A stretch of DNA of 64,000 nucleotides from IMG/VR virus record IMGVR_UViG_3300032236_001858; one strand, written 5' to 3'. How positions within the stretch are numbered: the stretch's first letter is position 1; each line of letters starts with the position of its first letter. Both the position numbers and the translations under genes were made by a program. Below the pieces are notes generated by a model, which did not search any database, was not told where the DNA came from, and saw nothing but the letters and a program-made list of their open reading frames with translations. Shown here one piece after another: positions 3,907-63,349 of this stretch. The stretch is from a virus (Duplodnaviria > Heunggongvirae > Uroviricota > Caudoviricetes).

Positions 3907-3961
3907 AATAGTTTTTTATTTATTGTATATATTAATAGTAAAAAATTTAATATATACAATT

Positions 3962-4930
3962 ATGATTAAAAGATATTTAGAGTTTATAAAAGAATCAAAT
4001 TATAATGGCTTTAACTCACTTGGTGAGTGGGTTGAAACTCTTATGGATGATGAGTATGTTAGAAACATAATCGCTCGTTATACAAAAGATTCTGATGCTT
4101 CTATTAATTTATCAAATGCTATTAATATCTTAGATGAGAAAGCTCAATCTGAAATTAAATCACAAATTGATAATTATTTACAAAATGGTATTGAAGAAAA
4201 AGAACCTCAGTTTTTAGTTTCAACTGATTTAGAAGAGTTAACAGAAGCACTTGCTGAAGAAATAACAATGGCTGGAAAAGGCATATTTACTTCTTTCTTA
4301 AAGGCTTTAACATCTTTAGGTCAAAAAGAAGTTGGACCAAATTGGTCTAAATGTCCAGATGACTTTTTACTATACTATTATTATCCTAATTTACAATCAG
4401 AACATGTAAAACAAGTATTTTCAAGATTTAAATCTTTAAGTAGATATTTGGACCACGTTGATTATCAAAAGAATGAAGTTGATTTATACTTTGGTATTAA
4501 ATGTGACGGCAATTTTGAATATGGTTTACATTATGATGAACCAACACCAATTGGTCAATTTAAACTAAATCAATCTGTTATTAAATGGATTTGTCAGATT
4601 GAATCTAAATCCGCTCATTCATTAAAGAAGGAATTAGTTAATTTAAGTTTAGCTGATGTAATGACATTGAGTAAGATTAAATTAGATATGAAAGACTTTA
4701 ATCCTGGGTTCCACGAGTCAAAAGATGTTGTGAAAATTCAAGATAAGATAATCTCTTTTGGTTACAAAGGTTTAGGTAAATGGGATAATGGTAAATTTGA
4801 TGAAGGTGAATTTATGAATATTAAAAATAACTTTACAACTTGGTTACTTACGAAGAAATGGGGTAGTAGAGTTTTAATTAGTGTTAAACCAACATCATAC
4901 TATGTTTACATACATATAAAATTAAAATAA
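3962..4930 (+). CDS. hypothetical protein
   Basis: The ORF track starts it at a TTG at 3923, placed inside the promoter-like motif. The first ATG is at 3962 (MIKRYLEF...). Confidence 0.5.
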   Translation: MIKRYLEFIKESNYNGFNSLGEWVETLMDDEYVRNIIARYTKDSDASINLSNAINILDEKAQSEIKSQIDNYLQNGIEEKEPQFLVSTDLEELTEALAEEITMAGKGIFTSFLKALTSLGQKEVGPNWSKCPDDFLLYYYYPNLQSEHVKQVFSRFKSLSRYLDHVDYQKNEVDLYFGIKCDGNFEYGLHYDEPTPIGQFKLNQSVIKWICQIESKSAHSLKKELVNLSLADVMTLSKIKLDMKDFNPGFHESKDVVKIQDKIISFGYKGLGKWDNGKFDEGEFMNIKNNFTTWLLTKKWGSRVLISVKPTSYYVYIHIKLK

Positions 4931-4933
4931 GAT

Positions 4934-5245
4934 ATGAAATACTTAAAGAAATATAACGAGAATGTAGAACAACAAGACCCTGAGTTTGCTATTGCTAAGA
5001 TTAAAGGTAGATATCCTGAAGATATGGCTAAAGAAATGTTAGACAAAGAAGTTAAACAATGGATTCCAGATGATAAGGATCCTGATTTCTACTCCACTTC
5101 AGGAAATGGTGAAGCAGAAGATGTTATTATTGATCAAATGATTGGTTGGTTTGAGAAAAAGTATTATGCTTTATCTGAAGAAAACTTTCAAAAGGTAAAA
5201 GAACTGATTCTAAAAGAGTATGAATTCTTAAACTTCAACTACTAA
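4934..5245 (+). CDS. hypothetical protein
   Basis: 103-aa ORF, tightly packed after the upstream gene. Confidence 0.45.
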   Translation: MKYLKKYNENVEQQDPEFAIAKIKGRYPEDMAKEMLDKEVKQWIPDDKDPDFYSTSGNGEAEDVIIDQMIGWFEKKYYALSEENFQKVKELILKEYEFLNFNY

Positions 5246-5290
5246 ACTAATAAAAAAAAATTTTCTATAACAAGAAAAGTTTTTTTGTTT

Positions 5291-5725
5291 ATGGAAAAAC
5301 CAAGTAAAGAAGATATAATGAAAAAATGGGCTCCTGTTTTAGAGTCTATGGGTATGACTGGATCTCAATTGGATAATTTATCACAACTAACCGAAAATCA
5401 ACCAAATCAAATATTAGAAGAAACTAAAACTGAAGAGTTTCCAAGTTTATTACCAATAGCTATGAGGGTAGCCGCTAGAACAATATCAAATGATTTAATA
5501 TTTGCTTCACAAGAAGAAATTGACCAAGTTAAAAAGAAAGTTCAATCTGAAAATCGTGATGGTAAGATTGAAGCCATTATAGAAGATAAAGAATTTACTG
5601 AGAAGAAATTAGAAGATGATGAAGAGTATAAGGAATTGATGAAAAAAGGTGTTAAACCTATGTCGGCACCTTCAGGAACTTTATTCTATTTAGATTATAA
5701 GTATGGAGGAGACAAAGATGAGTAA
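5291..5725 (+). CDS. hypothetical acidic protein
   Basis: The ORF track starts it at a TTG at 5285. The first ATG is at 5291. Confidence 0.45.
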   Translation: MEKPSKEDIMKKWAPVLESMGMTGSQLDNLSQLTENQPNQILEETKTEEFPSLLPIAMRVAARTISNDLIFASQEEIDQVKKKVQSENRDGKIEAIIEDKEFTEKKLEDDEEYKELMKKGVKPMSAPSGTLFYLDYKYGGDKDE

Positions 5726-5903
5726 ATATGTAAGTCCTGGAGTTTATATTAAAGAAACTGATTGGAGTGGTATTTATCCAGTATTTCAAAGAAATCTTTT
5801 AAGAAAGAATAAAATAGCTAAAATCTTTGGTTTAGATGTTAGATCGCTTATTATAACTTCAACTCCAAAAGGTCCAAATAATTTTCCAATTATTGCTTGG
5901 TGA
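5718..5903 (+). CDS. hypothetical small protein
   Basis: A GGAGGA Shine-Dalgarno-like sequence sits in front of the ATG at 5718. The ORF-track start at 5703 lies inside the upstream gene. Confidence 0.35.
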   Translation: MSKYVSPGVYIKETDWSGIYPVFQRNLLRKNKIAKIFGLDVRSLIITSTPKGPNNFPIIAW

Positions 5904-5932
5904 GGAACATGAGTGTATAATATATACTCATA

Positions 5933-61387: not shown

Positions 61388-61402
61388 CAAAAAAATTATA
61401 TT

Positions 61403-61705
61403 ATGGATACAAGATATTTGACAAGACCAACATCATTTGAAACTACATTAGCTATTCTACAAGAATTGCTAAGTGAAAGATTATCACCGGAATGGAGGAG
61501 AATTTGGGTGCAAGGGTCTAATTCTGGTAGAACAAGATTCTGCTTTACTATATTTCCCAATACTGGAACATATACGATGAGATTTCATGATGTTGGTTCG
61601 TTTAGACAATTTAGAACCGATGGTGAATTAGAATCTGAATTTGAGCTATTAAATAGATTTATTACTTCTTTATCTGAAGGTGTATTAAAAGACATAATTA
61701 TCTGA
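61403..61705 (+). CDS. hypothetical protein
   Basis: The ORF track extends it to 61259 across two tRNA genes. The ATG at 61403 (MDTRYLTRP...) lies just downstream of the last tRNA. Confidence 0.4.
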   Translation: MDTRYLTRPTSFETTLAILQELLSERLSPEWRRIWVQGSNSGRTRFCFTIFPNTGTYTMRFHDVGSFRQFRTDGELESEFELLNRFITSLSEGVLKDIII

Positions 61706-61716
61706 AATTAAGAAAG

Positions 61717-61772
61717 GCTTTACTAATATATAGATTTATGAAAATTTTATCTATTTTAGTAAAGCCTTTAAT
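61717..61772. terminator. long inverted repeat (14-bp perfect stem, 28-nt AT-rich loop), putative bidirectional terminator
   Basis: AAAGGCTTTACTAA ... TTAGTAAAGCCTTT between convergent genes. Confidence 0.45.
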
Positions 61773-61803
61773 TATGTATGTTAATTGGAGAATTAAATCT
61801 AGG

Positions 61804-63312
61804 TTAACTAACCATTGATATCATAAACCAAGATCCTCCTCCATTTTTAAGAATTGTTATTGAACCATAATTACTATTTATGGTTTTTGCACCAGTTGAA
61901 CCATCAATAGTTTCACCTAAATGTGGAGTTATAGTAATATTATTAGAACTTGCATTACCCGCTTCGTCTTTTATAATAACTATTTTACCATCTGTTAAAG
62001 TAGCAACACTTGCTAATGTTATACTAACAGATGTAGCAGTAGTATCTACCGGCCAATACTCTGGTTGAATTGATGGTAGTGCTAGAGGTGTTAATATAAA
62101 GCCAGATGGTGCTGAGATTGATGGATTAACAATAGGTCCGCCACTAACACCTGAAACACCTGAAGTACCGGATGAACCAGATGATCCGGAAACACCAGTT
62201 GATCCAATTTTACCATCGTAATTCCAACTTATAGTATAAATATCTTCATCTATCAAAGTTACATTTGCTGGAGTAACCGATGATGCTGAACCTGATATTG
62301 TAAGATATGAATAACCACCTGATACATTTTTAGCAACACTACCTCCTGTATTTTTGTTAATGGTATAGATACCTATAGGATCATTTGCTCCAAATCTTTT
62401 CAATTGAATATAAGCCACTCTTCCTCTAAAAACTTGGTTGTATAAATCATCTAATAAATAATAATAGTCTGTTCCAACATAATCAAGTTGACCTATTGTT
62501 ATTTGAGTTAATGTTGTTACGTCAGTTGTATCAGTGTGAAAATGGTTAGGGTTATAAAGAGAACTTGAATACTTCCATCTACCTGAAAGTGCAGCACCAT
62601 CATTACCACTTACTCCTGATGAACCGGATGAACCCGATACACCACTTGTGCCTGAACTACCTGATGTGCCTGAACTACCAGATGAACCTGATGAACCTGA
62701 TGAGCCAGACTGACCCATAGTTACCCAACTAATTGAATAGTTTTTACCACCTATTGCCATTCCATTTGATGAAACCTTAGTACAGTTAAAATTCCAAGAA
62801 GAACCCATATCTAAACCATTATTAACTTGGTAAATAACATAGTTATTAGCAGCATCGATCTGAGTTATCTTCATATATCCTTGATTTGGATAAGAAGTTA
62901 AAAAACTTCCTAAAGATGCTAACCAACTTGTGGCATCACCGCTTTCACTATAATAGTTTATATTAACATTATTACTTACTTGAGAAAAATCTGTATTACC
63001 TAAATTATATTGACCATTAATAGAATTGCTACCATAAACCCATCTTAGTGTATTAGAGCCATCAGCGCCACTTAAACCCGAAGTTCCTGATGAACCATTA
63101 GGACCAGTAGCACCAACATGACCTGAGGTACCTGATGAACCTGATGAGCCAGATGACCCACTTCCACCACCACCTGAACCTATTACGGTAACATTACCTG
63201 ATGTATCTTTTTGTTTAAGTACTCCGTCTAGATCTAGACCCATTAAAATACCTGATGACGGAGTTGCTGCTCCGGACATATCAATATAAGTAGAAAGTGA
63301 AATTAAACTCAT
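61804..63312 (-). CDS. collagen-like (Gly-X-Y / GSS-repeat) tail-fibre protein
   Basis: Four blocks of GSSGSSGSSGTSG...GATGPNGSSGTSGLSGADGS repeats. A TAATATATAGAG motif lies about 20-35 nt upstream. Confidence 0.55.
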   Translation of the reverse strand: MSLISLSTYIDMSGAATPSSGILMGLDLDGVLKQKDTSGNVTVIGSGGGGSGSSGSSGSSGTSGHVGATGPNGSSGTSGLSGADGSNTLRWVYGSNSINGQYNLGNTDFSQVSNNVNINYYSESGDATSWLASLGSFLTSYPNQGYMKITQIDAANNYVIYQVNNGLDMGSSWNFNCTKVSSNGMAIGGKNYSISWVTMGQSGSSGSSGSSGSSGTSGSSGTSGVSGSSGSSGVSGNDGAALSGRWKYSSSLYNPNHFHTDTTDVTTLTQITIGQLDYVGTDYYYLLDDLYNQVFRGRVAYIQLKRFGANDPIGIYTINKNTGGSVAKNVSGGYSYLTISGSASSVTPANVTLIDEDIYTISWNYDGKIGSTGVSGSSGSSGTSGVSGVSGGPIVNPSISAPSGFILTPLALPSIQPEYWPVDTTATSVSITLASVATLTDGKIVIIKDEAGNASSNNITITPHLGETIDGSTGAKTINSNYGSITILKNGGGSWFMISMVS

Positions 63313-63334
63313 CTATAATAATTTTTTTTATTAC

Positions 63335-63349
63335 TCTATATATTATTTT
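63335..63349 (-). promoter_or_regulatory. putative late promoter (TAATATATAGAG)
   Basis: Recurrent motif oriented toward the ATG at 63312. Confidence 0.4.

Follow-up and report, generated by a model that had tools for sequence, protein, structure and literature searches.

A box of A and T precedes start codons throughout the window

The window, by which we mean the whole 64-kb stretch of phage DNA analyzed here, contains 18 copies of the 10-mer TTAATATATA, with fewer than one expected. When one-base variants are included, 23 sites are found, each oriented toward the next start codon. The sites are given below with their distance to the ATG.

3926-3935, minus: TTAATATATA, 19 nt to ATG 3906 (gene 3172-3906)
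3947-3956, plus: TTAATATATA, N5 to ATG 3962; leaderless type
5917-5926, plus: ATAATATATA, N6 to ATG 5933; GIY-YIG-like MUG113/T5orf172 endonuclease
6279-6288, plus: TTAATATATA, 17 nt to ATG 6306
10696-10705, minus: TTAATATATA, 30 nt to ATG 10665 (gene 9256-10665)
10703-10712, plus: TAAATATATA, 23 nt to ATG 10736; overlaps the opposite-strand box 10696-10705
15341-15350, minus: TTAATATATA, 16 nt to ATG 15324; 1074-aa protein
19685-19694, minus: ATAATATATA, 23 nt to ATG 19661; 1430-aa protein; conserved in L002
21658-21667, plus: TTAATATATA, 14 nt to ATG 21682; HD phosphohydrolase; conserved in L002
23966-23975, minus: TTAATATATA, 22 nt to ATG 23943
26121-26130, minus: TAAATATATA, 23 nt to ATG 26097; M16 peptidase
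27201-27210, minus: TTAATATATA, N5 to ATG 27195; 48-aa ORF, then gene 26148-27077
28251-28260, minus: TTAATATATA, 60 nt to ATG 28190; Toprim / DNA primase
44874-44883, minus: TTAATATATA, 22 nt to ATG 44851; 1055-aa protein, phrog_29329; box invariant across three genomes
51040-51049, plus: variant TTGATATATA, 28 nt to ATG 51078; thioredoxin-like
52396-52405, plus: TTAATATATA, 20 nt to ATG 52426; LAGLIDADG endonuclease
55305-55314, minus: TTAATATATA, N4 to ATG 55300; 548-aa protein; leaderless type; conserved in L001
57107-57116, minus: TTAATATATA, 22 nt to ATG 57084; conserved in L001
57954-57963, plus: TTAATATATA, N5 to leader ORF 57969-58076, upstream of a tRNA-Phe/His/Phe/Trp cluster
58657-58666, plus: TTAATATATA, 19 nt to ATG 58686; HNH endonuclease
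60775-60784, plus: TTAATATATA, N8 to leader ORF 60793-60870, upstream of a tRNA-Arg/Ser cluster
61723-61732, plus: CTAATATATA, N5 to ATG 61738; small unannotated ORF
63337-63346, minus: ATAATATATA, 24 nt to ATG 63312; collagen-repeat, tail-fibre-like protein

The boxes at 3926-3935 and 3947-3956 stand back to back and share a divergent gap. The original prediction had placed the motif before eleven start codons, and all eleven carry it in gene orientation, either exactly or one to two bases off, with 16-30 nt between the last A of the box and the ATG in every case. That list holds in full but overlooked about a dozen further sites: six of leaderless type, with 4-6 nt between box and ATG (3947, 5917, 57954 and 61723 on the plus strand; 27201 and 55305 on the minus strand), and those before genes 10736, 21682, 28190, 51078, 52426 and 60793.

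The most enriched 9-mer within 80 nt upstream of genes was TAATATATA. Instead of being as frequent in coding DNA, the outcome that the original prediction had named as speaking against it, 17 of its 23 copies lie in the 6% of the window that is non-coding, compared with 15% for the other 125 nine-mers composed of five A and four T (P=4e-10). The 12-mer TTAATATATAMA occurs seven times, with 0.32 copies expected, and none of 100 shuffled sequences reached this number. Counting both strands, the core AATATATA is present in 26 copies, 22 of which precede a start codon and are oriented toward it.

The box is conserved in related phages and orientation-specific in a complete relative

We examined the box in LR745206.1, a complete relative at about 70% protein identity, in which it was found upstream of about 227 of 907 genes. 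There, 108 of the 133 copies of TTAATATATA are fully intergenic, and non-coding DNA makes up 8.3% of the genome. The 106 divergent junctions of LR745206.1 carry WATATATA in 123 of 212 directions, and its co-directional gaps contain 87 sense and 25 antisense copies. In four related phage genomes, the box is retained as an island upstream of orthologous genes while the flanks have diverged. The proposal that the motif is a promoter-like element is borne out by this specific orientation, by its presence at head-to-head junctions and near-absence from tail-to-tail ones (a single WATATATA in 42 convergent junctions of LR745206.1), and by an A conserved at a fixed distance downstream.

Spacing predicts a start site and leaderless transcripts

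The distance between box and ATG in LR745206 is bimodal: N4 (45 sites), N5 (22) and N6 (7) form a sharp peak and, beyond a void at 10-16 nt, a second, broad peak covers 17-29 nt. The distributions of control 8-mers, including TATAAATA, are flat. Of the leadered sites, 83% have an A as the fifth base past the box, the position held by the A of the ATG in the N4 class. The core AATATATA is invariant. No -35 element was detected: the information profile over 22 window and 217 LR745206 sites contains only a weak A preference near -30, and a Gibbs search performed no better than with shuffled sequences.

From this pattern we infer that transcription would start at the A five bases past the box. The core, with TT before it, would then span about -12 to -5, with no accompanying -35 element; the -7 box of sigma-A promoters in Flavobacterium psychrophilum has the reported register -12 to -5 (PMC9723704). 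In about a quarter of window sites and about 40% of those in the complete relative, the predicted start coincides with the A of the start codon, and the mRNA would therefore be leaderless; a leader of about 12-25 nt is predicted for the remaining sites. If correct, roughly 10% of all phage genes would have leaderless mRNAs, compared with about 5% of mRNAs in a member of the host phylum (PMC9723704).

A second promoter class is of host type

The window also contains promoters of the form TTTG-N19/20-TAnnTTTG, typical of Bacteroidota, and this class is separate from the box both here and in LR745206.

45197-45204, plus: -7 box TATCTTTG, N4 to ATG 45209; heads the ligase-to-sigma operon
19732, 28236, 33026 and 44929, plus: further host-type boxes
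55321-55352, plus: full Bacteroidota sigma-A-type promoter, TTTGG-N19-TAATTTTG
57881-57912 and 60723-60754: sister copies of the promoter at 55321-55352

The boxes at 57954-57963 and 60775-60784 lie downstream of the promoters at 57881-57912 and 60723-60754, respectively; upstream of the tRNA clusters, the two classes thus stand in tandem. The host-type class would provide the early promoters and drive other operons, including the one that encodes the ECF sigma factor.

The box resembles T4 late promoters, and a relative encodes a gp55-like factor

The T4 late system consists of the promoter TATAAATA, the sigma factor gp55, the co-activator gp33 and the sliding clamp gp45. The likeness of the motif to T4 late promoters, noted at the outset, was upheld: both are single A/T boxes of 8-10 bp with no -35 element. 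In register, AATATATA agrees with TATAAATA at six of eight positions and with the natural T4 variant AATAAATA at seven of eight; T4 late promoters have an 8-bp TATA box from -13, lack a -35 element and include a natural A(-13) variant (PMC2988020). As in T4, the box would lie about one helical turn before the start site, and its many copies stand on either strand directly before single genes, among them virion genes and homing endonucleases. There are also differences. The consensus here is (TT)AATATATA, and TATAAATA shows no start-codon association, its 295 copies in LR745206 having no preferred distance to start codons. The box apparently lies one base nearer the start (-12 to -5 versus -13 to -6), about 40% of sites adjoin the ATG and are predicted to be leaderless whereas none do so in T4, and a quarter of all genes carry the box upstream, replication genes among them.

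We compared ATAnATA variants among phages with T4 as a positive control, for which the start-codon-associated variant was ATAAATA (57%). This heptamer was not the associated variant in the window or in LR745206; ATATATA was associated in the window (48%), LR745206 (48%) and LR756504 (52%), and ATACATA in PTm1 (57%) and MA9V-1 (52%), the evidence for boxes being looser in the latter two.

A candidate reader is present among close relatives, which, like T4, encode a gp55-family protein. The LR745206 gene at 189151-189516 was recovered with a profile built from gp55 homologues (E=4.5e-7) and matches phrog_234, "late sigma transcription factor" (E=1.9e-7); a homologue is also present in Chryseobacterium phage MA9V-1. 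No gp55-like gene is encoded within the 64-kb window, and phmmer queries with T4 gp45 and gp62 against LR745206 returned no match. The clade falls within the T4-like "group 2.2" jumbo phages, which lack an RNA polymerase of their own, and gp33 orthologues are reported in group 2 phages (PMC7824862).

Taken together, we consider it rather likely that TTAATATATA is the sole recognition element of a phage-specific promoter class of T4 late type in a Bacteroidota-infecting megaphage clade, and that a gp55-type sigma factor, not the ECF factor, reads it. Its architecture and sequence would make the box a form of the T4 late promoter specific to this lineage, and we infer that its reader is the host RNA polymerase core with a gp55-type sigma factor encoded outside the window.

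The phage ECF sigma factor is genuine but fits the box poorly

The window encodes a sigma factor of its own, which the original prediction had put forward as the natural reader of the motif.

48939-49727, plus: ORF of the ECF-type sigma factor; conserved protein from ATG 49128, 199 aa
48924-49127: probably the leader of the sigma gene, with invariant boxes ATTAACGGCA (49055-49064) and GAACGGCAA (49116-49124)

The assignment itself is sound (TIGR02937, 83.8 bits versus a cut-off of 42.9; domains Sigma70_r2 and r4_2; best subfamily Sig70_bacteroi1). A model in which early transcription from a host-type promoter yields the factor (49128-49727), and the factor then activates a middle or late regulon through the box, would suit the host-type -7 box at 45197 that heads its operon, as well as the many non-structural genes behind the box, as expected for a middle class. 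The factor and the box co-occur in all four closest genomes, and every close relative that shares the box has a single orthologue of the factor. Autoregulation is typical of ECF sigma factors, and the LR745206 sigma leader contains an exact TTAATATATA, with TGATATATATAAT at the homologous place in the window, which would fit such a circuit. The co-occurrence and the exact box in the LR745206 leader count against a gp55-type reader. The sigma leaders of the window and LR756502 contain only degenerate, TATATA-rich sequence.

The architecture of the box argues against the ECF factor. Known ECF (group 4) promoters are bipartite, with AAC at -35 and CGT at -10, as also shown for the Bacteroidota host Flavobacterium (PMC9723704). 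The box has no such pair of elements 16-17 bp apart: it contains no G or C and lacks a -35 region. The phage factor retains region 4.2, a domain that as a rule requires contact with a -35 element. A count of AAC-N16/17-CGT gave few matches and only mild enrichment, and no anti-sigma partner was identified here. The resemblance to ECF systems lies in the phage-encoded factor and in the box upstream of its gene in one relative. Moreover, MA9V-1 has no homologue of the factor, yet it carries a gp55-like gene and ATAnATA boxes before the tail sheath and other large genes, and jumbo relatives without the homologue likewise keep start-codon-associated ATAnATA boxes. We therefore regard recognition by the ECF factor as unlikely.

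We find it still less probable that the host primary sigma factor reads the box as an atypical -7 box, either alone or after retargeting by a MotA/AsiA-like phage appropriator. Both are 8-bp boxes in the register -12 to -5 (PMC9723704), and in this phage both classes tend to adjoin start codons with N4-N5 placement. Bacteroidota sigma-A promoters are defined by TAnnTTTG at -7, with TTTG at -33 about 19-20 bp upstream, but the box has no TTTG and no -33 element beside it, and each motif is enriched as a class of its own, with both present in tandem at the same loci.

A role at the RNA level, whether as a site of endonuclease processing or in enhancing translation, is very improbable: the tight N4-N5 spacing to the ATG at many sites could be read as a translation signal, and Bacteroidota to our knowledge lack Shine-Dalgarno sequences, but the 17-29 nt class and the void at 10-16 nt are unlike a ribosome-binding signal, the box occurs in both directions of divergent junctions, where there is no upstream transcript to process, it is absent from convergent junctions, and the A at +5 is conserved wherever the ATG lies.

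Genes behind the box extend beyond structural functions

The earlier description of the targets as mostly fibre or structural genes did not hold in the window, where they include a Toprim primase, an HD phosphohydrolase, an M16 peptidase, three homing endonucleases (GIY-YIG-like, LAGLIDADG and HNH) and small leader ORFs ahead of tRNA clusters; a single target gene has tail-fibre-like matches. Because these non-structural genes lie behind the box, the label "late" would fit only in part. It agrees with LR745206, in which genes for the portal, baseplate gp25, tail tube and terminase lie behind the box, and those for the major capsid, sheath and gp4 behind TTATATATA variants. The box is also found before primase, uvsX (in LR745206) and gp46-like genes, which are early or middle genes in T4, and a quarter of all genes is a larger share than expected of a strictly late class.

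Leaders of the tRNA clusters resemble attenuators

The short ORFs and terminators upstream of the tRNA clusters resemble leader-peptide attenuators keyed to the downstream tRNAs. Each of the expected parts was found: regulatory codons are concentrated in a short ORF, which is accompanied by an intrinsic terminator and by an antiterminator that a ribosome can mask. The antiterminator forms solely with a ribosome on codons 1-16. Compensatory changes back both helices. The sensing codons correspond to the tRNAs that follow (His/Phe/Trp, Lys, Ser/Arg), those of the relative being Gln, Glu/Tyr, Ile/Gly, Pro/Asp and Asn/Leu/Thr/Val, and when leader-peptide composition was compared with the downstream tRNAs, the true pairing was 1 of 40,320 permutations. 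All known leader-peptide attenuators differ in that the genes regulated here are tRNAs, and in the literature we found no description of such a tRNA-charging attenuator circuit. The chances seem to us evenly balanced that a gp55-type box has been retuned twice, with about 40% of its transcripts starting at the AUG and with the box feeding, alongside host-type promoters, an attenuator before each tRNA sub-cluster. If so, the phage would adjust the synthesis of its tRNAs to how far those same tRNAs are charged.

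A recurrent A/T box precedes start codons in the window and its relatives

The original prediction described an A/T-rich motif recurring upstream of genes, and the pattern proved stronger than claimed. All eleven of its sites are real, and about a dozen more were found, notably sites at which the box, a ten-base promoter-like element (TTAATATATA; core AATATATA), ends 4-6 nt before the ATG. The window holds 18 copies of TTAATATATA and 7 of TTAATATATAMA (0.32 expected), and, of the 26 copies of the core, 22 precede a start codon and are oriented toward it. The box is not equally frequent within genes: TAATATATA, the top enriched k-mer within 80 nt upstream of window genes, has 17 of its 23 copies in non-coding DNA, which makes up 6% of the window, compared with 15% for the other 125 nine-mers composed of five A and four T (P=4e-10). 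Three further copies overlap the final codons of the gene upstream.

Read with the standard code, the window (64 kb, 29% G+C) is densely packed with coding sequence; recoding of TAG or TGA was rejected because code 11 already gives full coding density. At the protein level it is about 70% identical to LR745206.1 (635 kb) and LR756502.1 (642 kb), both complete uncultured huge phages, and more distant kin include LR756504, LR756501, Prevotella Lak phages, Tenacibaculum phage PTm1, Chryseobacterium phage MA9V-1 and Sphingomonas phage PAU. One contig bearing a window gene originates from run ERR2848505. The box is retained upstream of orthologous genes, with diverged flanks, in LR756502, LR745206, LR756504 and a closer relative, IMGVR_UViG_3300032312_001770, whose primase is 64% identical to that of the window; alignments of two upstream regions revealed the invariant island TTAATATATAA. 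The literature yielded nothing relevant on the motif string or on Lak, megaphage, PTm1 or MA9V-1 promoters. The relatives of the window form the 'Mahaphage' clade, with predicted Bacteroidetes hosts (PMC7162821), and Iyer et al. placed Lak-B8 and PTm1 in the T4-like 'group 2.2' of jumbo phages, which lack an RNA polymerase and encode sigma factors and an orthologue of gp33, the T4 late co-activator (PMC7824862). The window also encodes a 582-aa homologue of T4 gp46, an SbcC/Rad50-like recombination nuclease subunit (7187-8935 (+); phmmer E=1e-28), and thus one more member of the clade's T4-like core.

Distribution and spacing of the box are those expected of a promoter

We scanned the whole of LR745206.1 for the box and found 133 copies of TTAATATATA, 108 of them fully intergenic, in a genome with a non-coding share of 8.3%. 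In an expectation-maximisation fit, which gave the profile t-T-T-A-A-T-A-T-A-T-A-v, about 227 of 907 upstream regions were assigned a box. The 106 divergent junctions offer 212 directions, of which 123 carried WATATATA, 51 carried the host-type box TAnnTTTG of the Bacteroidota sigma-A promoter, and 161 carried at least one of the two. The box occurred once in 42 convergent junctions, and co-directional gaps carried it 87 times in sense versus 25 times in antisense orientation. A promoter would be expected to be distributed in this way, whereas AT-rich spacer DNA would not. Next after the box among the enriched upstream motifs of this genome came TATATTTG, and k-mer enrichment yielded no third, GC-containing one.

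The distance between the last A of the box and the first ORF-opening ATG is bimodal in LR745206: 45 sites have 4 nt in between (N4), 22 have N5 and 7 have N6, spacings of 10-16 nt are almost empty, and a broad second peak spans 17-29 nt, whereas control 8-mers including T4's TATAAATA gave a flat distribution. Both classes recur in the window: five sites fall at N4-N6, and the spacing of most others is 14-30 nt. Because 83% of sites in the 17-29 nt class have A as the fifth base 3' of the box (0.55 bits), and because the same position coincides with the A of the ATG in the N4 class, we assigned +1 to this A. Transcription would then start five bases past the box and the core would occupy -12 to -5, which is the register of the TAnnTTTG box in Flavobacterium psychrophilum (PMC9723704). 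The void at 10-16 nt would fit very short leaders that serve neither leaderless nor leadered initiation. Neither an information profile nor a Gibbs sampler detected a -35 element above shuffled controls; a weak preference for A was seen near -30 upstream of the box. The box appears to be a promoter with an unusual predicted property, mass leaderless initiation. Such mRNAs would bear on how translation starts in the Bacteroidota, a phylum without Shine-Dalgarno sequences.

The box precedes more than structural genes

The genes following the box in the window were predicted to be mostly structural, which is not supported. A collagen-repeat, tail-fibre-like protein is among them, as are a Toprim primase, an HD phosphohydrolase, an M16 peptidase, GIY-YIG-like, LAGLIDADG and HNH endonucleases, small ORFs preceding tRNA clusters and several large uncharacterised proteins, one of which (1055 aa) is conserved clade-wide. 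We located T4 homologues in LR745206 and inspected their upstream regions. The exact box precedes the genes for portal (gp20), gp25, tube (gp19) and terminase, and TTATATATA variants precede those for the major capsid protein, sheath and gp4. It also precedes uvsX and is absent upstream of the polymerase, helicase, gp47 and gp55-like genes. The class would take in the late genes while being broader than 'late', a designation that, like 'structural', is unproven.

Three of the four free-standing homing-endonuclease genes of the window have their own TTAATATATA box, and in a relative (L029, 3085-3420) such a gene, of the GIY-YIG type and likewise equipped with a box, has been inserted between the His/Phe leader and its tRNAs.

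Free-standing homing-endonuclease genes of the window
5933-6265, GIY-YIG-like
34518-35051 (-), HNH-like
52426-53298, LAGLIDADG
58686-59228, HNH

Host-type promoters head other operons

Other operons of the window are headed by the Bacteroidota sigma-A signature, TTTG-N19/20-TAnnTTTG.

Full TTTGG-N19-TAnnTTTG promoters in the window
55321-55352 (+)
57881-57912
60723-60754

In addition, the start codons at 19749, 28266, 33038, 44940 and 45209 each follow a -7 box by 3-22 nt, in most cases 3-4 nt. The TAnnTTTG boxes at 33026, 44929 and 45197 (+) are 3-4 nt from the start codon and that at 19732 (+) is 9 nt away. With this box at -12 to -5, such distances predict leaderless mRNAs from host-type promoters as well; in LR745206, host-type boxes show the same N4-N5 peak. 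The operon from 45209, with an NAD-dependent ligase first, includes the phage sigma gene, and its host-type -7 box suggests that the sigma factor is probably made early. The tRNA clusters are preceded by both kinds of element, a host-type promoter and the phage box arranged in tandem, and this layout is conserved.

To our knowledge, Mahaphage and Lak megaphages have never been cultured, and no description is known of how they schedule their roughly 900 genes. A sharp promoter consensus together with the host-type class offers a first transcription map separating phage-controlled from host-polymerase genes, and the predicted start sites can be checked directly in metatranscriptomes.

About 400 nt of non-coding DNA (55358-55765 (+)) are roughly 95% identical between the window and IMGVR_UViG_3300032312_001770, compared with 64% for the primase. 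This stretch is served by a full host-type promoter of its own (55321-55352), finishes with a T-run, is without an Rfam match (searches with this region and with the tRNA leaders gave sub-threshold hits only) and has a fold z-score of just -1.67. A non-coding RNA of the phage, so far undescribed, is the probable product.

A gp55-type factor is the favoured reader of the box

T4 late promoters consist of an 8-bp TATA box from -13 without a -35 element and have a natural A(-13) variant (PMC2988020). The phage core differs from AATAAATA at one position and likewise lacks a -35 element, so the predicted likeness to T4 late promoters stands, as does, from junctions and orientation, the promoter assignment itself. 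When ATAnATA heptamers lying up to 40 nt from ORF starts were tallied, the start-associated variant was ATAAATA in T4 (57%) and ATACATA in PTm1 (57%) and MA9V-1 (52%); for the window, LR745206 and LR756504 it was ATATATA (48-52%). In Lak-A1 (50 kb) no variant was clearly tied to start codons. The skeleton seems to be shared, with a central base that differs by lineage. The box is taken to be a version, particular to its lineage, of an already known type of promoter. MA9V-1 was rejected as a clean test, its box being fuzzier (ATACATA/ATAAATA) and other leader motifs dominant.

Searches of the LR745206 proteome with T4 gp55 (the late sigma factor), gp45 (the sliding clamp) and gp62 by phmmer gave no matches. 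A profile of gp55 homologues recovered what phmmer had missed, a 121-aa protein (189151-189516; E=4.5e-7) that PHROGs labels a late sigma transcription factor (E=1.9e-7) and that has a homologue in MA9V-1 (E=2.5e-12). The gp55-like protein is the factor common to the two genomes checked for it, LR745206 and MA9V-1. Combined with a T4-late-type box devoid of ECF features, this leads us to favour, with modest confidence, a gp55-type factor over the phage's own ECF sigma factor. The latter had been proposed as reader, and the protein encoded at 48939-49727 is indeed a genuine ECF type, nearest to a Bacteroidetes subfamily. Points in its favour are that the four closest genomes have both this factor and the box, that the sigma leader of LR745206 contains an exact box, and that the box regulon is broad. 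ECF promoters are, however, bipartite, with a CGT -10 element in Flavobacterium (PMC9723704), and the phage box has neither feature. MA9V-1 has the gp55-like protein but no homologue of this ECF sigma factor. Reading of the box by the ECF factor is the less likely option. Whether a gp55-like or an ECF sigma factor acts here is a concrete biochemical question.

The first 63 codons of the sigma ORF are not conserved among relatives, so the real start is probably the conserved ATG 49128, preceded by a leader of about 200 nt (48924-49127). This leader holds two invariant boxes, ATTAACGGCA and, immediately before the ATG, AAYGGCAA (49055-49064 and 49116-49124), which occur almost nowhere else in the 635-kb relative and may be a gene-specific operator or translational control site. 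AACGGCA boxes were rejected as an ECF regulon motif, being nearly restricted to the sigma leader.

The box leads to candidate tRNA-cluster attenuators

The window has at least 12 tRNA genes at 58.2-61.4 kb, and here the box revealed an unexpected link to candidate attenuators. The boxes at 57954 and 60775 each lead into a short ORF, after which come a strong terminator and, further on, tRNA genes. Such ORF-terminator pairs are located upstream of every tRNA sub-cluster.

Leader ORFs of the window, with peptide and downstream tRNAs
57969-58076, MRTNNTHKHFSKSNKWFSNQFGTESVLLSNKMLKV; Phe, His, Phe, Trp
60793-60870, MKTIMLTSKSSSSRSSKPSEVRSYS; Arg(ACG), Ser(TGA) x2, Ser(GGA)
59233-59262, MKTKLKYKR; four tRNA-Lys

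Leader-terminator units
Window: 57969-58131; 60793-60927; also 59233-59290
LR745206.1: 342380-342553; 343630-343767; about 365030-365266; 366081-366227; 387700-387897; 406703-406868; about 407640-407756

LR745206 has eight units in which the peptide matches the tRNAs, including MTTTQQIQQQQINQTD before three tRNA-Gln. Across the window and LR745206 the matching amino acids are His/Phe/Trp, Lys, Ser/Arg, Glu/Tyr, Ile/Gly, Asn/Leu/Thr/Val, Pro/Asp and Gln, and among 40,320 permutations of the pairing in LR745206 the true one alone attains the observed excess of matching residues. A switch at equilibrium was rejected, as equilibrium folds always retain the terminator; it appears only in a co-transcriptional model with truncated RNA. 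When the RNA is cut before the 3' arm of the terminator and a ribosome is modelled at codons 1-16, where the sensing codons lie, the 5' arm pairs with a distal segment of the ORF, and it is freed once the ribosome covers that segment. This ribosome-position dependence would follow the same logic as the trp attenuator. Across three phages, compensatory changes preserve both helices, at five pairs of the terminator and three of the antiterminator in unit 1, and at one antiterminator pair in unit 3; a fourth copy of unit 1 is present in IMGVR_UViG_3300015608_005401. The Lys unit differs in that its stop codon adjoins a hairpin without a T-run. The units look like leader-peptide attenuators controlling tRNA genes, for which our literature search found no describing paper. 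Attenuation is a textbook mechanism; if working as modelled, tRNA-leader peptides would extend it to a new class of regulated genes and explain how large tRNA sets are regulated in huge phages.

Further tRNA-like sequences at 58150-58231, 58472-58543, 59650-59943, 60586-60716 and 61201-61300 were missed by ARAGORN or fell below threshold in Rfam. Some have long insertions, such as about 60 extra bases between the tRNA-like halves of 60586-60716, and three of the four tRNA-Lys genes measure 84-88 nt, which is long for tRNA-Lys; these are possibly intron-containing or otherwise unusual tRNAs.
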